A stretch of 64,000 nt of DNA from a phage: sequence record PZ172995.1; one strand, written 5' to 3'. The translations under genes were made by a program, and so were the position numbers. This document shows, piece by piece, positions 9,801-16,648 of this stretch. Positions within the stretch are counted from its first letter, which is position 1; each line of letters opens with the position of its first letter. A model generated the notes under the pieces. That model was not told the DNA's origin and did not search any database. It saw nothing but the letters and a program-made list of their open reading frames with translations.

Positions 9801-11216
9801 ATGAGCGAATTATTTAAACATGCGCACCTTCATGCAGGTCGAACTGAAAATGGTGCTGTAAACCATACTTCATCAATGTCTGCTCTGGTGGACTTTTACA
9901 AAGCCGCTGGCTCAAGCCGTAGCAATGTAGAAATCTTACCAGACCTGTTCTACAAAGCTTTGCGTGAGGATGTTGATGTTGCAGTTCGTATTTTACTGCA
10001 TATGCGAGATGTACGAGAAGGTATGGGTGAGCGTAAAGCTTTCCGAACTGTTTTACTTCAAGCGATTGAAGATAAGGTTTTAGAACCTACACAGGTTCTT
10101 CGCATTATGGATAAGATTGCAGAACTTGGTCGTTTTGATGACTTCAAAATCTTCGTAGGCACTCGTTTTGAGACAGATGCCTTCAAACATTTAGAAGCAG
10201 CATTACTAGACCCTGCAACAGCAGGTTTAGCAGCTAAGTGGTTACCACGAGTAAAACCACGCCACAAACAGTTTGTAAAACGTTTCTGTAAGTTTGCAAA
10301 CTTAAGCGAGAAGGAGTATCGCACACTGTTATCTGCACTGTCTGATACGGTTGAGCAAAAAATCTCTGCTAATGAGTTTGGTAAGATTGACTACAGCAAG
10401 GTTCCTTCACTCGCTGCTGCACGTTACCAAAAACTCTTTAACCGTAAAGATGGGGAACGTTACAAAGCTTACGTTGAGTCACTCTCAAAGGGTGAGGCTA
10501 AGATTAACGCTGGTGCTGTTTACCCATACGATGTGATTAAATCTATCAAGTATGGTAATGCAGATGTGGCTAATGAGCAGTGGAAAGCACTACCAAACTG
10601 GATGGCAGAAGGTGAGAACATCTTGTGTATGACTGATGTTTCAAGTTCAATGTCTTGGGTGAGTCTTGGTTCAATCACTGCCCTTGATGTTGGTGTATCC
10701 CTTGCCTTGTATGTAGCAGAACGCAACACAGGTTGCTTTAAAGATGAGTTAATGGTCTATTCAACAAACCCTCATTTCATTGAACTGAGTGGTGATTTAC
10801 GAAACCGTCATCGTCAGGTAATGCGTCATGTTGAATATGGTTCAACTAACTTACAAGCAGCTTTTGACCGCATTCTTGAAATAGGTAAGAGAAACAACTT
10901 GACTCAGAAAGATATGCCAAGTAAGCTTATTATCTTCTCTGATATGGAGTTTAATCAGGTTGATGGTGCAAATGGTCGTACAAACTTTGAAGCAATTCAG
11001 AGTAAGTACAAAAAAGCTGGATACGAAATGCCACAACTAGTATTCTGGTACTTAGCAAACCGTAATGGTACTTGCGAAGTATCTGTTAAGGATAATGGTG
11101 TAGCAATGGTATCAGGGTTCTCTCCAGCCACTTTAAAAGCTCTGCTTGGTGGTGAGAAGTTTGACCCAATCAGCGTAATGCTCAAAGCAGTAATGATTGA
11201 CCGTTACATCTGGTAA
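9801..11216 (+). CDS. DUF2828-like protein with C-terminal vWA/MIDAS-like motif (possible TROVE/Ro60-like fold)
   Basis: N-terminal RTENGAVNHTSSMSAL motif and DVSSSMS (DxSxS) motif in the 471-aa translation; strong RBS; family assignment from recalled signatures, not a search. Confidence 0.6.
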   Translation: MSELFKHAHLHAGRTENGAVNHTSSMSALVDFYKAAGSSRSNVEILPDLFYKALREDVDVAVRILLHMRDVREGMGERKAFRTVLLQAIEDKVLEPTQVLRIMDKIAELGRFDDFKIFVGTRFETDAFKHLEAALLDPATAGLAAKWLPRVKPRHKQFVKRFCKFANLSEKEYRTLLSALSDTVEQKISANEFGKIDYSKVPSLAAARYQKLFNRKDGERYKAYVESLSKGEAKINAGAVYPYDVIKSIKYGNADVANEQWKALPNWMAEGENILCMTDVSSSMSWVSLGSITALDVGVSLALYVAERNTGCFKDELMVYSTNPHFIELSGDLRNRHRQVMRHVEYGSTNLQAAFDRILEIGKRNNLTQKDMPSKLIIFSDMEFNQVDGANGRTNFEAIQSKYKKAGYEMPQLVFWYLANRNGTCEVSVKDNGVAMVSGFSPATLKALLGGEKFDPISVMLKAVMIDRYIW

Positions 11217-11380: not shown

Positions 11381-11457
11381 CTCTGTTTAGCTCAGCTTGG
11401 TAGAGCGTTCCGTTTGGGGCGGTAAGGCCGGAGGTTCAAGTCCTCCAACAGAGACCA
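11381..11457 (+). tRNA. tRNA-Pro (TGG)
   Basis: Hand-folded cloverleaf: acceptor CTCTGTT/AACAGAG, anticodon loop TTTGGGG, T-arm GGAGG-TTCAAGT-CCTCC, CCA encoded. Confidence 0.75.
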
Positions 11458-11464
11458 AATTAAT

Positions 11465-11542
11465 GTTCCAGTAGACAAAACGGTAAAGTCACCACTCTTT
11501 CAAAGTGGATATTTGAGGGTTCAAATCCCTTCTGGAACGCCA
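11465..11542 (+). tRNA. tRNA-Glu (TTC)
   Basis: Acceptor GTTCCAG/CTGGAAC, anticodon stem CCACT/AGTGG with loop CTTTCAA, T-loop TTCAAAT, CCA encoded. Confidence 0.75.
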
Positions 11543-11547
11543 GTTTT

Positions 11548-11623
11548 GACAGAAGACCAATTACAGCAAACTTAATCTACTCATCTGACACGAAATCGGA
11601 CAAAGAAGATATTTGGTCTGGTC
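11548..11623 (+). ncRNA. conserved hairpin element, copy 1 (basal stem CAGAAGACC / GGTCTGG, loop with CAGCAA)
   Basis: GACAGAAGACCA pairs with TGGTCTGGTC around a loop of about 50 nt; same stem in three further copies. Confidence 0.5.
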
Positions 11624-11632
11624 ATTAAGAAT

Positions 11633-11709
11633 TGCGGGTATAGAGAAAGGGCGTCTCACATGTCTCATTAGCATGGTATCGGCAGGTTCGACTCCTGCAC
11701 CCGCCTCCA
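11633..11709 (+). tRNA. tRNA-Met (CAT), irregular acceptor stem
   Basis: D-stem GAGA/TCTC, anticodon stem CATGT/GCATG with loop CTCATTA, T-arm GCAGG-TTCGACT-CCTGC; acceptor pairing imperfect. Confidence 0.55.
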
Positions 11710-11714
11710 ATTTT

Positions 11715-11778
11715 GCAGAAGACCGTATGCAGCAACAAACTACTTTTTTTGCGGATAAAAGAAAAAACACGGTCTGGC
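11715..11778 (+). ncRNA. conserved hairpin element, copy 2
   Basis: GCAGAAGACCG ... CAGCAA ... CGGTCTGGC. Confidence 0.5.
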
Positions 11779-11788
11779 AATATATTAA

Positions 11789-11865
11789 GGTTAGGAAGCA
11801 CATAAGGTATGTGCGGTCGCCTGTTAAGCGAATGGCACAGGGTTCGAATCCCTGACTAACCGCCA
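11789..11865 (+). tRNA. tRNA-Asn (GTT)
   Basis: D-stem GCAC/GTGC, anticodon loop CTGTTAA, T-arm CAGGG-TTCGAAT-CCCTG, CCA encoded. Confidence 0.7.
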
Positions 11866-11874
11866 AATTTAAAT

Positions 11875-11962
11875 GTGTCGTTATCCCGTAGATGGTAGCG
11901 GTGGGGACTGTAAATCCCTTGTCATTGAGACTCGGTAGGTTCGACTCCTACACGGCACACCA
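11875..11962 (+). tRNA. tRNA-Tyr (GTA), long variable arm
   Basis: Acceptor GTGTCGT/ACGGCAC, anticodon loop CTGTAAA, long variable arm, T-arm GTAGG-TTCGACT-CCTAC, CCA encoded. Confidence 0.7.
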
Positions 11963-11968
11963 AATAAA

Positions 11969-12046
11969 GGTTATGTAGTTTAATCTGGTTAAAATACTCC
12001 CCTGTCACGGGAGATGATGAGGGTTCAAATCCCTTCGTAACCGCCA
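11969..12046 (+). tRNA. tRNA-Asp (GTC)
   Basis: Anticodon stem CTCCC/GGGAG with loop CTGTCAC, T-arm GAGGG-TTCAAAT-CCCTT, CCA encoded. Confidence 0.8.
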
Positions 12047-12129
12047 AATTATAATAAGTATTTCAAAATGATGTTTGAGAGGGCTATTTAGCCCCTCCCT
12101 TAAAGAGTTCTTACGAGTATTCTTTAAAG

Positions 12130-12212
12130 GAGCAGAAGACCAAATTCAGCAAGTACGTATGATATTTTCAAGCCAATTTAATTTTGAAAAAATTTAAAAC
12201 TTGGTCTGGCTC
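12130..12212 (+). ncRNA. conserved hairpin element, copy 3
   Basis: GAGCAGAAGACCAA pairs with TTGGTCTGGCTC; loop contains CAGCAA. Confidence 0.5.
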
Positions 12213-12221
12213 AACAAATTT

Positions 12222-12357
12222 ACAGAAGACCGTTTACAGCAAAACTTAAACAATCTATTTCTCCGGTAAAGAAAAGGCGAAGGTTCGATTCCTTCACTCG
12301 GCAGATGTCGAGTTGGTGTAATGGTAGCACTTAAGATGACAAACAACGGTCTGGTAA
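12222..12357 (+). ncRNA. conserved hairpin element, copy 4, enclosing a tRNA-like module (T-arm hairpin, acceptor-like hairpin, D-arm-like hairpin); candidate Y-RNA-like RNA
   Basis: Basal stem ACAGAAGACCGTT / AACGGTCTGGTA; inside: GAAGG-TTCGATT-CCTTC (12279-12295), ACTCGGC-AGAT-GTCGAGT (12296-12313), GTGT-AATGGTA-GCAC (12316-12330). Confidence 0.45.
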
Positions 12358-12503
12358 TTATCTTTGTAGGTGAGCTATTAAGCTTACTTGTGAGTATGCG
12401 ACCACAAAGGGTGAAAGGGCAAATTCTAGATTTAAACCCAACAAGGCACATCGCTACAGACCTTAAGCAAGTCTGGGTAGCTTATCTACAAAGATAATTT
12501 AAT

Positions 12504-12579
12504 GGAAGTGTAGCAGAATGGTGATGCGGCAGACTTTTAATCTGACAGGCGATGGGTTCGAATCCCTCCACTTCTACCA
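12504..12579 (+). tRNA. tRNA-Lys (TTT)
   Basis: Acceptor GGAAGTG/CACTTCT, anticodon loop CTTTTAA, T-loop TTCGAAT, CCA encoded; paralogous to the Lys(CTT) tRNA at 13820. Confidence 0.7.
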
Positions 12580-12583
12580 ATAT

Positions 12584-12660
12584 GGTTCAGTCGCAGATAA
12601 GGTAATGCAGGGGTCTCATAAGCCCTATGAATGTGGGTTCGATTCCCATCTGAACCTCCA
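12584..12660 (+). tRNA. tRNA with CAT anticodon (Met or lysidine-Ile)
   Basis: Acceptor GGTTCAG/CTGAACC, anticodon loop CTCATAA, T-arm GTGGG-TTCGATT-CCCAT, CCA encoded. Confidence 0.7.
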
Positions 12661-12661
12661 A

Positions 12662-12737
12662 GCTGGTATAGTTAAGAAGGTTATAACACTCCCCTGATAA
12701 GGGAATATCGGTGGTTCGATTCCACCTACCAGTACCA
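12662..12737 (+). tRNA. tRNA-Ile (GAT)
   Basis: D-stem GTTA/TAAC, anticodon loop CTGATAA, T-arm GGTGG-TTCGATT-CCACC, CCA encoded. Confidence 0.75.
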
Positions 12738-12752
12738 ATTTCAATAAAGTTG

Positions 12753-12781
12753 TTGACATTGATATGTGACTATTTTATAGT
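12753..12781 (+). promoter_or_regulatory. sigma70-like promoter (TTGACA, 17 nt, TATAGT) inside the tRNA array
   Basis: TTGACA 12753-12758, TATAGT 12776-12781; downstream about 300 nt has no tRNA or ORF. Confidence 0.55.
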
Positions 12782-12832
12782 AACTGAAAATGATTCAGCA
12801 TATGTATAATTCAAACACCAATACATGAGCGT

Positions 12833-12904
12833 TAGACGTAACACAATGTGGGGAAATTTGTTGTACATATTCTGAATAGTTTTCGTTGCGTAGCGTCTAT
12901 TTTG
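12833..12904 (+). terminator. putative structured element ending in a T-run (possible sRNA 3' end)
   Basis: TAGACG ... CGTCTA stem enclosing about 55 nt, followed by TTTTGC. Confidence 0.3.
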
Positions 12905-13074
12905 CAAATTTAAAATAAATGCAAACGACAATGTTTTTCTGGCAGTAGCTTGATAGGCTAAACACCAGTGAGGTCTTCCAATCCCTCATCAAAGAATTTG
13001 GCGTACTAGCCCACGGTATGATTAATAAGGTGGGCATCTTTAAGGGCTTTCTAAGAGAGTCTTTAAAGATTAAT

Positions 13075-13151
13075 GCACCCTTAGTTCAATTGGATAGAGC
13101 AACGGTCTTCTAAATCGTTAGTTACAGGTTCGAATCCTGTAGGGTGTGCCA
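13075..13151 (+). tRNA. tRNA-Arg (TCT)
   Basis: Acceptor GCACCCT/AGGGTGT, anticodon loop CTTCTAA, T-arm ACAGG-TTCGAAT-CCTGT, CCA encoded. Confidence 0.75.
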
Positions 13152-13293
13152 AATAGTTAGCAGATTGCTTAGACGACCTTATCGGGTCTCCGCGTAAGGA
13201 GGTGGTCTGTATCTCATGTTTTCCAGAACATGTAAATAATCTGAGAAGGGGCTTTACAGTGTTGCGAAAATACGGTAAGCTTCGAATTATAGT

Positions 13294-13376
13294 GTGGGAC
13301 GATGTTAAGACTCTAAGGCATGAGCAACGGCCTCCAAAACCGTTTCAAAGGGGTTCAACTCCTCCGTCCCATGCCA
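13294..13376 (+). tRNA. tRNA-Trp (CCA)-like, atypical length and D-region
   Basis: Acceptor GTGGGAC/GTCCCAT, anticodon loop CTCCAAA, T-loop TTCAACT, CCA encoded; about 7 nt longer than canonical. Confidence 0.45.
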
Positions 13377-13389
13377 AAGTCTTATTAGG

Positions 13390-13477
13390 GGTAGGTAGCG
13401 GCTAATGGCAGCCAAACAGTCTTGAAAACTGTTGCAACTGTAGAGATACGGTGAGGGTTCGACTCCTTTACTTACCA
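13390..13477 (+). tRNA. tRNA-Ser (TGA), long variable arm
   Basis: Acceptor GGTAGGT/ACTTACC, anticodon stem ACAGT/ACTGT with loop CTTGAAA, variable arm about 20 nt, T-loop TTCGACT. Confidence 0.7.
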
Positions 13478-13634
13478 CCTAATAAGATTTTACACCGTCC
13501 ATGCTTGCTCGCATTTTCGGTTTATCCCTCGTGTATTGTCGTACACACTGATAAAGCACCTAGTAGGTGTCACGGAGAAGAGATAATATCAAGCTCTCCA
13601 AAGGTTCTAGTCACCGGATTAAACAAGACTATGC

Positions 13635-13656
13635 AAAGACCAATTTAGGTCTTTTT
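13635..13656 (+). terminator. putative Rho-independent terminator
   Basis: AAAGACC-AATTTA-GGTCTTT followed by TTT. Confidence 0.45.
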
Positions 13657-13735
13657 AGAGGGCTTCTAAGGTTATTACAGCTTGTTGTGGAACCTTGTTG
13701 CTTAGGTTCTTAGAAGTTCTCTAAAAAGATTTAAT

Positions 13736-13812
13736 GCACCTATAGCCCAACTGGTAGAGGCAGCAGACTTAGAATCTGCTCAGTGTGAGTTCGAATCTCT
13801 CTAGGTGTACCA
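13736..13812 (+). tRNA. tRNA with TAG anticodon (Leu by anticodon), short variable arm
   Basis: Acceptor GCACCTA/TAGGTGT, anticodon stem GCAGA/TCTGC with loop CTTAGAA, T-loop TTCGAAT, A73, CCA encoded. Confidence 0.65.
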
Positions 13813-13819
13813 AATTAAT

Positions 13820-13895
13820 GCAGGTGTAGCAAAATGGTTATGCGGCTGACTCTTAATCAGTAAGACGATGGGTTCAATTCCCTCCACCTGTACCA
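13820..13895 (+). tRNA. tRNA-Lys (CTT)
   Basis: Acceptor GCAGGTG/CACCTGT, anticodon loop CTCTTAA, T-loop TTCAATT, CCA encoded. Confidence 0.7.
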
Positions 13896-13901
13896 AACAT
13901 T

Positions 13902-13977
13902 GGGGTCATAGTTTATATGGTTAAAATTCGAGTTTTGCAAACTTGGGAACTGAGTTCAATTCTCAGTGACTCCACCA
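13902..13977 (+). tRNA. tRNA-Ala (TGC)
   Basis: Acceptor GGGGTCA/TGACTCC, anticodon loop TTTGCAA, T-arm CTGAG-TTCAATT-CTCAG, CCA encoded. Confidence 0.7.
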
Positions 13978-13983
13978 ATTAGT

Positions 13984-14058
13984 GCATCCATAGTTTAAAC
14001 GGGAAAATTACAGTCTTCCAAACTGAGGTTGAGGGTTCGATTCCCTCTGGATGCTCCA
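13984..14058 (+). tRNA. tRNA-Gly (TCC)
   Basis: Acceptor GCATCCA/TGGATGC, anticodon loop CTTCCAA, T-loop TTCGATT, CCA encoded. Confidence 0.75.
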
Positions 14059-14065
14059 AATTAAT

Positions 14066-14141
14066 GCTCCTATCGTATAATTGGCTATTACGGTTGCCTT
14101 GTAAGTAACTTATCAGGGTTCGAATCCTTGTGGGAGCACCA
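14066..14141 (+). tRNA. tRNA-Thr (TGT)
   Basis: Acceptor GCTCCTA/TGGGAGC, anticodon loop CTTGTAA, T-arm CAGGG-TTCGAAT-CCTTG, CCA encoded. Confidence 0.7.
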
Positions 14142-14238
14142 ATTTAGAGGTCAAGTGAAAGACCGCTTTGAGTCAACTGAAGACCGTAACAAATCCCACG
14201 GAGTTGAGTTAGCGGCACAACTTCAGACCTCTTTCCAC

Positions 14239-14313
14239 ACTCGCTTAGTTTATATGGTAAAACATCACCCTTACAAGATGAAGAAAAAGGTTCAAGTCCT
14301 TTAGTGAGTACCA
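14239..14313 (+). tRNA. tRNA-Val (TAC)
   Basis: D-stem GTTT/AAAC, anticodon loop CTTACAA, T-arm AAAGG-TTCAAGT-CCTTT, CCA encoded. Confidence 0.7.
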
Positions 14314-14314
14314 T

Positions 14315-14392
14315 GTTCCAGTATCCCAATTGGCAGAGGATGCAAGCTCAAACCTTGCACTAGTGACGGTTCGAATCCGTCTTGGAACACCA
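14315..14392 (+). tRNA. tRNA with CAA anticodon (Leu by anticodon), short variable arm
   Basis: Acceptor GTTCCAG/TTGGAAC, anticodon stem GCAAG/CTTGC with loop CTCAAAC, T-arm GACGG-TTCGAAT-CCGTC, A73, CCA encoded. Confidence 0.65.
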
Positions 14393-14397
14393 ATTTT

Positions 14398-14473
14398 GCA
14401 GGATTAGTTCAAATGGATAGAGCAACAGTCTACGAAGCTGTTAATAGGGGTTCGAGTCCCTTATCCTGCGCCA
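14398..14473 (+). tRNA. tRNA-Arg (ACG)
   Basis: Acceptor GCAGGAT/ATCCTGC, anticodon loop CTACGAA, T-loop TTCGAGT, CCA encoded. Confidence 0.75.
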
Positions 14474-14491
14474 GATAAGTAAGAGTGATTT

Positions 14492-14734
14492 ATGCAAACA
14501 TTAATCGTCGTTGAACATGAAAATTCCAATAGCATTGAGTTTGTAAGGGTTCCCACTATAGATACCCACATTTTCTTGAAAGTAGGCTGGGAATGTGACC
14601 CAATAAGAGTAGAAAAATTTATTGGTCATTACTTTGGTGGAAGACAACTTAAAAGTGTTAATTTTGAGACAATGTTACCAGAAAACTCAGAAACAAATAA
14701 TAATGTTTACCTCCTTACAAGGATTAGACAATGA
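14492..14734 (+). CDS. hypothetical protein encoded inside the tRNA array
   Basis: ORF with RBS; ATGA overlap with the next gene. Confidence 0.5.
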   Translation: MQTLIVVEHENSNSIEFVRVPTIDTHIFLKVGWECDPIRVEKFIGHYFGGRQLKSVNFETMLPENSETNNNVYLLTRIRQ

Positions 14735-15288
14735 GATATTTGAAGTATGTTTCATGGATTTTCTTAGCTTTGCTAGAGCCATTTGCAGCAATCTTAGCAG
14801 TCATCTTAGCACCTTTTGTAGTTCTATTCTACAGTGAGAAGAGAGGACACTTACCTTTCGGCTTCAGATGGATGGAAACATATGATAACCCAATTGATGG
14901 TGATAAAGGTCATGTCGAACGATGGGCTAAGATTAGAAAGATTGGTAAGCTTGGTATCTATATGCAGAGAGTTGGTTGGCTCTGGAGAAACAAAGCTTAT
15001 AACTTCTCTTACCATGTGTTAGGAAGAGATGTAAAAGATGTTACTAAGTGGAAAGGTAATATCAATGTAAGTTCTAACCCTGAAGATAATCAGACAGGTT
15101 ATCTCCTAATGTGGAACAGTAATGCTTGGGGATTATTCGCTTTTATCCCATCAATTAAACTCTTTGGTAAGCAATTCTACTGGAGAATTTATGTTGGATG
15201 GAAACTTAAAAGTGTTGTTCCAAAAGAAAGAGCATTCTCAAGGGAAAGAGTTATGTTGGCATTCTTTATTCATCCACTGAGAAAGTAA
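14731..15288 (+). CDS. hypothetical Trp-rich membrane protein encoded inside the tRNA array
   Basis: N-terminal hydrophobic helix WIFLALLEPFAAILAVILAPFVVLF in the 185-aa translation. Confidence 0.6.
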   Translation: MRYLKYVSWIFLALLEPFAAILAVILAPFVVLFYSEKRGHLPFGFRWMETYDNPIDGDKGHVERWAKIRKIGKLGIYMQRVGWLWRNKAYNFSYHVLGRDVKDVTKWKGNINVSSNPEDNQTGYLLMWNSNAWGLFAFIPSIKLFGKQFYWRIYVGWKLKSVVPKERAFSRERVMLAFFIHPLRK

Positions 15289-15296
15289 AGATTTAA

Positions 15297-15372
15297 AGGG
15301 GATTAGTTTACAAGGTTAAAACCTCGGTCTTTGAAATCGAAGAAGTTGGTTCAATTCCAACATCCCCCGCCA
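15297..15372 (+). tRNA. tRNA-Gln (TTG)
   Basis: Anticodon stem TCGGT/ATCGA with loop CTTTGAA, T-arm GTTGG-TTCAATT-CCAAC, CCA encoded. Confidence 0.7.
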
Positions 15373-15374
15373 AT

Positions 15375-15453
15375 GCTCCATTACTCCAATTGGCAGAGAG
15401 GCCAGACTTAAAATCTGTGTTATGTATCGGTTCGAATCCGATATGGAGTACCA
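15375..15453 (+). tRNA. tRNA with TAA anticodon (Leu by anticodon), short variable arm
   Basis: Acceptor GCTCCAT/ATGGAGT, anticodon loop CTTAAAA, T-arm ATCGG-TTCGAAT-CCGAT, A73, CCA encoded. Confidence 0.65.
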
Positions 15454-15458
15454 AATTT

Positions 15459-15534
15459 AGCGGTATAGCATAACTGGCAATGCAGCAGTCTCTGAAGCTG
15501 TCTTATTAAGGTTCAAATCCTTATGCCGCTGCCA
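15459..15534 (+). tRNA. tRNA-Gln (CTG)
   Basis: D-stem GCAT/ATGC, anticodon loop CTCTGAA, T-arm TAAGG-TTCAAAT-CCTTA, CCA encoded. Confidence 0.7.
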
Positions 15535-15565
15535 CTTCTAAGGATTCTTACGAGAGTCCTTAAAT

Positions 15566-15641
15566 GTGGCCTTATCATAAATGGTAATGACCCATGCTGT
15601 GAACATGGTCTATACGGGTTCAAATCCCGTAGGTCACCCCA
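15566..15641 (+). tRNA. tRNA-His (GTG)
   Basis: D-stem TCAT/ATGA, anticodon stem CCATG/CATGG with loop CTGTGAA, T-arm ACGGG-TTCAAAT-CCCGT, CCA encoded. Confidence 0.75.
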
Positions 15642-15646
15642 ATTTA

Positions 15647-15723
15647 TAGTCCAAGTAGCTTATATGGTTAAAGCGCGTGTCTGAAAAACATGAGAAGAGG
15701 GTTCAAATCCCACTGGACTACCA
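15647..15723 (+). tRNA. tRNA-Phe (GAA)
   Basis: Acceptor TAGTCCA/TGGACTA, anticodon stem CGTGT/ACATG with loop CTGAAAA, T-loop TTCAAAT; linker lengths slightly irregular. Confidence 0.65.
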
Positions 15724-15739
15724 ATTTCAAAGGTGCTTA

Positions 15740-16474
15740 ATGAAAGAGATGACAGGACAAGGTAAGGAGATTTTTAATCTCTTAAAAACCGGTAGAGGGT
15801 TTTCTAATCCCCTTATTACTGGTGCAGCAGTTCTCGGTGGAACCGTAGCTGCCTCTACATCACTTGTAAGCTCTATTAGCTCTGTAACAGACCCTACAAT
15901 AAAGGATAAACTTGTTGCCGCTGGACTTACAACAGTTCTGCTTAACAGCTTTACAACGAGTCTGACAAGCACTACATCCACCACTAAGACATTGACAGAT
16001 TACGGTCAAAAATCAATTGATGAGTTTTCATCACGTATGCAGGTAGCAAAAGGATATTCCAATGTTATGGGTGCAGCAGGAGAGCAAGTTGGTTGTACAC
16101 CATTTAGTGGTATTATGGGTGTTGCTACAGAATATGGTCAAAAAGCTATTGACACGATTAACAACACGTTAGACAGTGTTAACGGCGTGTTAAGTGACTT
16201 ACAGGATGCTATTGATAAAGGTCTTGATACTGTTTCTGATTTAGCTAACCAAGCTGTTAGCAAGATTAATGAAGGTATCTCGAAGATTACAGCTTATGCA
16301 GATGAAGTTGTGCAGATGATTGAAGAAGAAGCTGCCCTTATTGCAGAGTACCTTAAAACGAATATCAATGGGTTCTTAGCAGGTATTTTACCAGACTGGT
16401 TTGATGATGCTTGTAAAACTGGTGTGATTGACACTATTGCAACACCAGAAATGAAGAACGCATTACAGAAATAA
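15740..16474 (+). CDS. hypothetical Ser/Thr-rich protein encoded inside the tRNA array
   Basis: Track start 15677 lies inside tRNA-Phe; ATG at 15740 has AAAGGTG RBS; low-complexity S/T region then a helical C-terminal half. Confidence 0.6.
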   Translation: MKEMTGQGKEIFNLLKTGRGFSNPLITGAAVLGGTVAASTSLVSSISSVTDPTIKDKLVAAGLTTVLLNSFTTSLTSTTSTTKTLTDYGQKSIDEFSSRMQVAKGYSNVMGAAGEQVGCTPFSGIMGVATEYGQKAIDTINNTLDSVNGVLSDLQDAIDKGLDTVSDLANQAVSKINEGISKITAYADEVVQMIEEEAALIAEYLKTNINGFLAGILPDWFDDACKTGVIDTIATPEMKNALQK

Positions 16475-16475
16475 T

Positions 16476-16568
16476 GGAAGATTAACCCTAAAAGGTAAGG
16501 GAGCAGTTTGCTAAACTGCCAGTAGCTGAGAAATCGGTGTACCAGTTCAAGTCTGGTATCTTCCCCCA
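16476..16568 (+). tRNA. tRNA-Ser (GCT), long variable arm
   Basis: Acceptor GGAAGAT/ATCTTCC, anticodon stem GCAGT/ACTGC with loop TTGCTAA, variable arm about 21 nt, T-arm ACCAG-TTCAAGT-CTGGT, CCA encoded. Confidence 0.75.
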
Positions 16569-16572
16569 ATTT

Positions 16573-16648
16573 GAATCCGTGACAGAAATGGCTATGTGCC
16601 TGTCTGCAAAACAGGTTTATAAGGGTTCGAGTCCCTTCGGATTCTCCA
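16573..16648 (+). tRNA. tRNA-Cys (GCA)
   Basis: Acceptor GAATCCG/CGGATTC, anticodon stem CCTGT/ACAGG with loop CTGCAAA, T-arm AAGGG-TTCGAGT-CCCTT, CCA encoded. Confidence 0.8.

Follow-up and report, generated by a model that had tools for sequence, protein, structure and literature searches.

Can a transfer RNA (tRNA) with a leucine anticodon and no long variable arm serve as a leucine tRNA (tRNA-Leu) in an enterobacterial cell? The question is raised by sequence record PZ172995.1, a 64,000-nucleotide (nt) stretch of phage DNA that we call the window, in which a preliminary description made from the letters alone had noticed three tRNA genes with the anticodons TAG, CAA, and TAA and variable regions of 5 to 7 nt in place of the expected long arm, and had left two alternatives: class I leucine tRNAs, or an identity that differs from what the anticodon implies. 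The window comes from a Felixounavirus, a Felix O1-like phage of Escherichia coli and Salmonella; the sequence surrounding the three genes shares 95-97.5% identity with Felix O1-like myoviruses that infect E. coli, Salmonella, and Shigella, its best match is Escherichia phage JN01, and 278 records in the phage collection searched match the array region. We conclude, with a probability that we put at roughly 0.85, that the three genes encode functional type I tRNA-Leu species which would be charged by the host's leucyl-tRNA synthetase (LeuRS) and would decode the codons UUA, UUG, and CUA/CUU, which are heavily used in this AT-rich phage.

The shape of the three molecules is the first point. In type I tRNAs the variable region forms no helix and is usually 4 or 5 nt long; in type II tRNAs it exceeds 10 nt, and in canonical bacterial tRNA-Leu it makes an arm with a stem of 3 to 5 base pairs (bp). 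Parsed segment by segment, the three phage tRNAs, here called Leu-UAG, Leu-CAA, and Leu-UAA, have variable regions of 5, 6, and 7 nt, all within the type I form and none of them a canonical long arm, just as the preliminary description had it. ARAGORN returns the same three genes at the same coordinates with the same anticodons, and the general tRNA covariance model of Rfam (RF00005) covers all three end to end (model positions 1-71) with scores well over the gathering score of 29 (Table 1). Specifically, i) each forms a cloverleaf with an acceptor stem of 7 bp, stems in the D, anticodon, and T arms, a 7-nt anticodon loop with U33, and a T loop of the form UUCRANY, which is UUCGAAU in all three; ii) each has A73, an encoded CCA end, a D stem of 3 bp, and C-AAYUGGYAGA as its D segment, so that the shared D loop and discriminator first read by eye are recovered by the parse; iii) the anticodon stems, originally called perfect or near-perfect, pair at 5/5 positions in Leu-UAG, 5/5 in Leu-CAA, and 4/5 in Leu-UAA (which has a C27.U43 mismatch), and the T stem of Leu-UAG contains a U50.U64 mismatch; and iv) the tRNA-Tyr and both tRNA-Ser of the same array do have long arms in the ARAGORN structures. 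Because the whole length, CCA included, is 77 to 79 nt, there is no space for a class II arm; neither ARAGORN nor the Rfam model yields a long-arm fold or a shifted anticodon, and gene length excludes both. Single-sequence thermodynamic folding gives the cloverleaf as the minimum free energy or centroid structure for Leu-UAG and Leu-CAA, not for Leu-UAA, with z-scores of -0.2 to -1.9; these energies do not discriminate, and support for the cloverleaf comes instead from the covariance model and from covariation.

Table 1. Positions in the window of the three short leucine tRNAs, of the array that contains them, and of the long-armed tRNAs used as internal comparators
Feature	Coordinates	Strand	Length (nt)	Basis or role	Parts
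tRNA-Leu(UAG), type I	13736-13812	+	77	ARAGORN; Rfam RF00005, 57.3 bits; segment parse	acceptor 13736-13742 / 13802-13808; D arm 13745-13761; anticodon 13770-13772; variable region UCAGU 13780-13784; T arm 13785-13801; A73 13809; CCA 13810-13812
tRNA-Leu(CAA), type I	14315-14392	+	78	ARAGORN; Rfam RF00005, 43.7 bits; segment parse	anticodon 14349-14351; variable region ACUAGU 14359-14364; A73 14389; CCA 14390-14392
tRNA-Leu(UAA), type I	15375-15453	+	79	ARAGORN; Rfam RF00005, 47.5 bits; segment parse	anticodon 15409-15411; variable region GUUAUGU 15419-15425; A73 15450; CCA 15451-15453
26-gene tRNA array	11381-16648	+		ARAGORN; contains all three Leu genes	
tRNA-Tyr(GUA), type II	11875-11962	+	88	ARAGORN structure; internal comparator	long variable arm
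tRNA-Ser(UGA), type II	13390-13479	+	90	ARAGORN structure; internal comparator	long variable arm
tRNA-Ser(GCU), type II	16476-16568	+	93	ARAGORN structure; internal comparator	long variable arm

Two anticodon loops differ from those of the host. The loop of Leu-UAG (13768-13774) is CUUAGAA with A37, where E. coli leuW has UUUAGGU with G37, and the loop of Leu-CAA (14347-14353) is CUCAAAC with C38, where E. coli leuX has UUCAAAA. Such differences could alter m1G37 or i6A37 modification as well as sensitivity to anticodon nucleases; such effects have been discussed for the related phage Sf14 (PMC12482277).

The second point is identity. Leucine identity in E. coli is ascribed to A73, the A15-U48 pair, G18G19, A20a, and the elbow pairs (reviewed by Giege and Eriani, PMC9976931), and we compared the phage tRNAs with E. 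coli K-12 leuZ, leuX, leuW, and leuV and with the tRNA-Leu of phages T4 and T5, all parsed alike. All three phage tRNAs carry A73, U8:A14, and A15:U48, with U48 as the last nucleotide of the variable region; all three have G18G19-Y20-A20a-G21-A22 in the same register as leuW, leuX, leuZ, and leuV, with which they share the D arm (a 3-bp D stem and an 11-nt segment from 13 to 22); and the T loop supplies the elbow elements U54, U55, C56, and A58, with the pairs G18:U55, G19:C56, and U54:A58. At the sequence level, the full identity set of E. coli LeuRS (PMC9976931, PMC6614811) is thus present in each. Published tRNAscan-SE isotype models rank Leu first, with scores of 67.4, 49.1, and 60.2, for all three of the near-identical tRNAs of Sf14 (PMC12482277, 2025), a study that makes no mention of the variable arm; compared with the phage of this record, the Sf14 CAA and UAA tRNAs are 99% identical outside the variable region and the UAG tRNA differs by one base.

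Independent support for leucine comes from a scan that is blind to the anticodon. In one genome per prokaryotic species we looked for the combination of D-loop motif, T loop, and type I spacing, leaving the anticodon free (pattern GATTCGAAC N30-32 TCTRCCARTT); among the matches listed, 122 lie inside a called tRNA, and 116 of these (95%) bear leucine anticodons, namely CAA, UAA, UAG, CAG, or GAG. The scaffold is therefore tied to leucine anticodons, and of the two alternatives originally posed it is the class I tRNA-Leu that the D arm, the identity elements, the scaffold scan, and the isotype scores all favor.

Could the anticodons nonetheless mislead, so that the tRNAs are charged by another synthetase or not at all, with UUA, UUG, and CUA recoded, or with the RNAs acting as decoys, primers, or regulators? 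The missing long arm, the hallmark of bacterial tRNA-Leu, would fit, as would the failure of E. coli LeuRS on one natural type I tRNA-Leu (see below) and the runner-up isotype scores of Leu-UAG, which come near the Leu score of 67.4 (Ile2 65.7, Lys 63.4). IleRS, LysRS, and ArgRS read the anticodon, however, and the anticodons here are wrong for them. The other anticodon-independent synthetases are excluded by sequence: SerRS, since there is no long arm with G73, and AlaRS, since the 3:70 pairs are A-U, U-A, and U-A rather than G3:U70. Against a misleading anticodon stand also the complete set of LeuRS elements, the 95% leucine anticodons on the scaffold, the canonical 7-nt anticodon loops with U33, and a Streptomyces coelicolor tRNA of like type that is a proven leucine acceptor. 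We regard misleading anticodons as very improbable.

Conservation and covariation carry the third part of the argument. In each of the four Ounavirinae genera that we looked at (Felixounavirus, Suspvirus, Mooglevirus, and Kolesnikvirus), every tRNA-Leu gene called by ARAGORN is short, at 77 to 79 nt. Outside the variable region, the CAA and UAA genes match those of phage SUSP2 at 99% identity, compared with 88% for the surrounding region; Leu-CAA has the same sequence in Felix O1 and Sf14 as in SUSP2, and Leu-UAA is identical in SUSP2 and Felix O1 and differs by one base in Sf14. When 34 distinct short tRNA-Leu sequences from phages and viral contigs were aligned, RNAalifold recovered a simple cloverleaf of four arms, and 19 of its 20 pairs show compensatory changes; 96.5% of stem cells were paired, against 56.5% after shuffling and 36-45% with partners slid by 1 to 3 columns. 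A73 is present in all 34 and U48 in 33 of the 34. The three genes are most probably maintained under selection. They could instead be decaying or recently truncated copies of type II tRNA-Leu that have lost their function, as the single stem mismatches in Leu-UAG and Leu-UAA and a degenerate tRNA-like remnant in the same array (13289-13376) might suggest; but genes that are better conserved than their surroundings across Ounavirinae, that covary strongly across phage lineages, that score well over the Rfam threshold, and that share 84% identity with an actinobacterial short tRNA-Leu but 68% with the tRNA-Leu of E. coli make such decay extremely improbable.

The Leu-UAG slot in Ounavirinae holds two unrelated alleles, both short-armed. 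The allele of this phage, which Sf14 shares, reads GCACCUA-UA-GCC-CAACUGGUAGA, and that of Felix O1 (locus L134, 2537-2614) and SUSP2 (locus L131) reads GGGAGAU-UG-AUG-GUAAUUGGUAAA. It looks as if one tRNA gene had been replaced by another in the same position.

Short tRNA-Leu genes are not confined to this phage group. A BLAST search with the Leu-UAG gene gave near full-length, ungapped matches annotated as tRNA-Leu in unrelated phages, and the relatives that we fetched confirm short genes of 74 to 80 nt, by ARAGORN call or record annotation, in Melpomini (Bixzunavirus, host Mycobacterium), StarPlatinum (Karimacvirus, host Streptomyces), KaOmega (Vequintavirinae, host Klebsiella), phiPsa315 (Otagovirus, host Pseudomonas), EFDG1 and Bromius (both Herelleviridae, hosts Enterococcus and Lactobacillus), F86 (not classified, host Vibrio), and Mareelih (Forzavirus, host Gordonia). 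The tRNA-Leu of T4 (87 nt) and T5 (85 nt) have the classical long arm. A scan of IMG/VR whose pattern allows for long as well as short arms (AATTGGTAGA, 28-51 nt, then GTTC) is biased by that pattern and gives an indication rather than a census; when it is pooled with ARAGORN calls over the window and all the other loci that we had fetched, variable length is bimodal among the matches listed, with 39 of 106 tRNA-Leu at 5-7 nt and 67 at 10-20 nt. Again among the matches listed, the short share rises with the size of the IMG/VR locus, from 0/15 in loci of 1-2 tRNAs to 1/10 in those of 3-5 and 15/49 (31%) in those of at least 6.

Three of these loci deserve separate mention. StarPlatinum carries a 76-nt and an 82-nt tRNA-Leu(UAG) 12 nt apart (locus L002, 4089-4170), and one IMG/VR contig (L102) has a long Leu-UAA beside a short Leu-UAG and a short Leu-CAA. 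In the short tRNA-Leu(UAG) of EFDG1 (locus L255, 294-367) the acceptor stem contains G3.U70, by which alanine identity is defined; this tRNA might be charged with alanine besides or instead of leucine.

The chromosomal matches of the prokaryote scan point to Actinomycetota. At least 76 of the leucine matches listed sit in loci without another tRNA, and among the matches listed the single-tRNA loci that carry titles belong to Actinomycetota in all but one case, including Mycobacterium, Nocardia, Pseudonocardia, Amycolatopsis, Cellulomonas, Bifidobacteriaceae, Acidimicrobiia, and Coriobacteriia; the non-actinobacterial matches listed lie mostly in dense tRNA arrays of 7 to 34 genes per 8 kilobases (kb). 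Chromosomal short tRNA-Leu in Actinomycetota agrees with the type I tRNA-Leu(CAA) of S. coelicolor and with the description of long loops for just three tRNA-Leu of Mycobacterium tuberculosis. All three phage tRNAs fit the scaffold of this family (a leucine anticodon with U8-A9, a 3-bp D stem, C13-AAYUGGYAGA, a variable region of 5-7 nt ending in U, the T loop UUCGAAU, and A73). Leu-UAG is 84% identical to a chromosomal short tRNA-Leu(UAA) of Actinomycetaceae, as against 68% to E. coli leuW; it has D arm, anticodon stem, and variable loop UCAGU in common with the Actinomycetaceae gene, and it is 80-84% identical both to actinobacterial chromosomal genes and to genes of Klebsiella, Streptomyces, and Mycobacterium phages. 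Since the phage genes are closer to these short forms (up to 84%) than to E. coli tRNA-Leu (only 63-68%), they are members of the short family, and trimming of a host tRNA-Leu can be rejected as their source.

How often the arm was lost is a further matter. Short forms, the three phage tRNAs among them, mostly have A9 and C13, whereas long-arm tRNA-Leu have G9 (59 of 65) and a purine at 13 (64 of 65), which suggests that the tRNA core may have been re-fitted after arm loss. Outside the variable region, nearest-neighbor identities to long and to short relatives are alike (0.6-0.8), the sequences being short, and some short tRNAs are nearer to long ones (a Leu-GAG in locus L113, 0.80 to long and 0.58 to short forms); this hints that the arm may have been lost more than once.

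From the gene structure, conservation, covariation, identity elements, distribution, and codon usage that we observe, we infer the following course of expression, charging, and decoding. The three tRNAs would be transcribed together with the rest of the 26-tRNA array and matured by enzymes of the host, the CCA end being already encoded; the LeuRS of E. coli or Salmonella would charge them with leucine, as an enzyme that reads A73 and the shape of the corner between D loop and T loop, and neither the anticodon nor, according to biochemical work in which LeuRS had no need for it, the long arm; and Leu-UAA would decode UUA and UUG, Leu-CAA would decode UUG, and Leu-UAG would decode CUA and probably other CUN codons. 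Bacterial SerRS and TyrRS use the long arm. The arm would thus be dispensable in leucine tRNAs only, and its loss from Leu alone within the array fits the arm dependence of SerRS and TyrRS and the arm independence of LeuRS. TrmL is also tolerant: it methylates an E. coli tRNA-Leu(CAA) stripped of its entire arm as well as it does the wild type (PMC4615657).

The codon usage of the phage gives such tRNAs something to do. Leucine codons in the open reading frames (ORFs) of the window are UUA 27%, CUU 28%, UUG 13%, CUA 11%, and CUG 16%; E. coli has a strong preference for CUG and little tRNA for UUA, UUG, and CUA. The three anticodons cover codons that the phage over-uses, and that it employs far more often than CUG, for which the host has abundant tRNA-Leu, which points to the usual codon-supply role of phage tRNAs. 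As for the charging enzyme, among the 11 window ORFs that reach 400 amino acids (aa), the seven largest gave no match to synthetase families (some 24 kb of the genome lie outside the window), and the sole ORF of LeuRS size, at 909 aa, is a family A DNA polymerase; since the ORFs examined hold no synthetase match, we presume that the host LeuRS does the charging.

Several observations weigh against host charging and efficient decoding. E. coli LeuRS failed to charge the natural type I tRNA-Leu(CAA) of S. coelicolor and has been described as a type II-only enzyme (PMC6614811), and in crystal structures the variable arm of E. coli tRNA-Leu contacts K809 and R811 in the C-terminal domain of LeuRS (2025, PMC12360207), so arm loss may cost charging efficiency. 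The isotype margin of Leu-UAG in the Sf14 values given above is small (67.4 for Leu, 65.7 for Ile2, and 63.4 for Lys; PMC12482277). Loop modification by the host may differ, given A37 in Leu-UAG (host CUN readers have G37) and C38 in Leu-CAA. Finally, Leu-UAA and Leu-UAG each have one stem mismatch, and folding energy fails to single out the cloverleaf. The first of these points may turn on a single nucleotide: judging from the sequences, the failure of the E. coli enzyme may lie in C48 of the Streptomyces tRNA, where the phage tRNAs have U48.

The S. coelicolor tRNA is the nearest described counterpart. Like the phage tRNAs, it replaces the long arm by a variable loop of some 5 nt, and it functions beside type II tRNAs in one cytoplasm with a single LeuRS (PMC6614811, Nucleic Acids Res 2019); the scaffold UA-NCC-CAAYUGGYAGA-GGN is common, among the matches listed, as single chromosomal genes in Actinomycetota, with at most 84% identity to Leu-UAG. 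The differences are that i) the variable loop of the Streptomyces tRNA, ACAGC, has C48 as its last nucleotide, where the phage tRNAs have U48 and thereby preserve the A15:U48 pair reported to be needed by E. coli LeuRS; ii) S. coelicolor LeuRS ignores A73, whereas E. coli LeuRS uses it (PMC6614811); iii) the phage tRNAs, unlike the Streptomyces tRNA, would depend on an enterobacterial LeuRS; and iv) the genes described here are phage-borne and comprise three isoacceptors with variable regions of 5, 6, and 7 nt.

Other systems are instructive in part. With canonical type II tRNA-Leu (E. coli leuW, leuX, leuZ, and leuV, and those of T4 and T5) the phage tRNAs share A73, the 3-bp D stem, N-AAYYGGYAGA, U48, and the anticodons UAG, CAA, and UAA; the variable region of the former is 13-15 nt with a stem, against 5-7 nt here. 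Animal mitochondrial tRNA-Leu are likewise type I, with identity resting on A73 and A14, and are recognized without a long arm (PMC9976931), but they have a dedicated mitochondrial LeuRS and a loosened structure, reportedly do not cross-react with cytoplasmic systems, and show no close sequence relationship to the phage tRNAs. Laboratory constructs are precedents as well: the minimalist arm-less E. coli tRNA-Leu (Larkin et al. 2002, as cited in PMC9976931), for which LeuRS tolerates removal of the arm when A73 and the D/T corner are intact, and the VLAD mutant, for which TrmL does (PMC4615657). The phage tRNAs would be natural, selection-maintained counterparts of both.

The distribution of the short forms also invites an adaptive account, which would add to the explanation preferred here rather than replace it: arm loss might be an advantage, either because the short form evades enzymes of host or competitor that are directed at the arm, or because it is portable across distant hosts. 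Such an account would make sense of the occurrence of a single family in phages from three phyla (Proteobacteria, Firmicutes, and Actinomycetota), and the concentration of short forms in large viral tRNA loci (15/49 with at least 6 tRNAs and 0/15 with 1-2, among the matches listed) agrees with it. Arm-directed enzymes do exist: the toxin MenT3 of M. tuberculosis anchors itself on the long variable loop, a loop-deleted tRNA-Ser being without detectable modification at low enzyme concentration, and human SLFN11 cleaves type II tRNAs; phage tRNAs, moreover, are known to evade anticodon nucleases by loop changes (PMC10264068). Yet MenT3 favors tRNA-Ser over tRNA-Leu; bacterial Schlafen nucleases are set aside as an arm-directed threat, since the tRNAs cut by the characterized one are those for Lys, Met, Ala, Val, Phe, and Ile, without specificity for type II; long-arm tRNA-Leu persist in T4, T5, and many viral arrays; and the phage's own Ser and Tyr tRNAs retain their arms. 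Literature searches turned up no bacterial enzyme that targets tRNA-Leu via its arm, and to our knowledge none has been described. We consider an adaptive arm loss quite unlikely.

A broader proposal along the same lines, that short tRNA-Leu is a mobile, phage-favored "universal" leucine adaptor whose arm loss was selected for resistance to toxins or nucleases or for charging across hosts, we also hold to be unlikely. If it were true, the family would have moved between the chromosomes of Actinomycetota and phages of at least three bacterial phyla, and enterobacterial LeuRS would naturally charge a type I tRNA-Leu, although it has been described in print as acting on type II only.

The array around the three genes has its own peculiarities. 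All 26 tRNA genes are on the plus strand, often spaced 1-9 nt apart and interrupted by small ORFs, in a window whose G+C content is 39.1%; the CCA end is encoded in 25 of the 26 called tRNAs, the exception being tRNA-Ser(UGA), whose call ends in ACC. The degenerate element at 13289-13376 (plus strand), immediately upstream of tRNA-Ser(UGA), combines an acceptor stem of 7 bp with a T arm whose loop is UUCAACU, discriminator G, an encoded CCA, and an anticodon loop CUCCAAA that would give the anticodon CCA (Trp); its D region is oversized and irregular, ARAGORN calls it only at an 80% threshold, and Rfam gives it 23 bits against the tRNA-Sec model. Trp is the sole isotype without a called tRNA in the array, and an annotated tRNA-Trp is present in the related phage phiEa21-4. 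Three gaps of 256-457 nt (12047-12503, 12738-13074, and 13480-13735) are without a called tRNA, and the weak, sub-threshold Rfam matches within them are a partial tRNA at 12246-12296 (22 bits), matches resembling transfer-messenger RNA at 12786-13074, and a hairpin at 13643-13735; the GenBank annotation of T5 places stable RNAs of unknown function at comparable sites of its tRNA region.

Directly upstream of the array, a plus-strand ORF of 471 aa (9801-11216) matches DUF2828 and DUF7788 and, weakly, a von Willebrand A domain; the same DUF2828 protein precedes the tRNA array of Sf14, and a PDB sequence search with the 471-aa protein found no relative. A role for it in the handling of tRNA or other RNA would be speculation. 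The protein ORFs within the array (14492-15288 and 15677-16474, plus strand) encode 80 aa, 185 aa (DUF7338), and 265 aa (DUF7217). The 80-aa ORF has no Pfam match; some related records annotate a gene of this ORF region as a holin, and Sf14 lists its version of the 265-aa ORF as a putative membrane protein.

Type I tRNA-Leu is already known from mitochondria and Streptomyces, and genes like those described here are already annotated as tRNA-Leu in many phage records; our full-text literature searches found no description of arm-less tRNA-Leu in phages, or of coliphages that carry them. The short-arm tRNA-Leu of phages is therefore under-noticed rather than unprecedented, and not a new kind of molecule. 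Textbooks and recent primary papers class bacterial tRNA-Leu as type II, with Streptomyces for an exception, and describe the LeuRS of E. coli as a type II-only enzyme (PMC6614811). A coliphage family with three type I genes, 278 records of which match part of the array, is a natural test of what enterobacterial LeuRS does with a type I tRNA, and of which tertiary elements, such as U48 as opposed to C48, decide charging. Short forms that make up about one third of the tRNA-Leu in the viral arrays sampled (among the matches listed), and that recur at actinobacterial loci, bear on tRNA annotation and isotype models, on the tracing of tRNA gene flow between phages and their hosts, and on why leucine alone, and not serine or tyrosine, can shed the arm.

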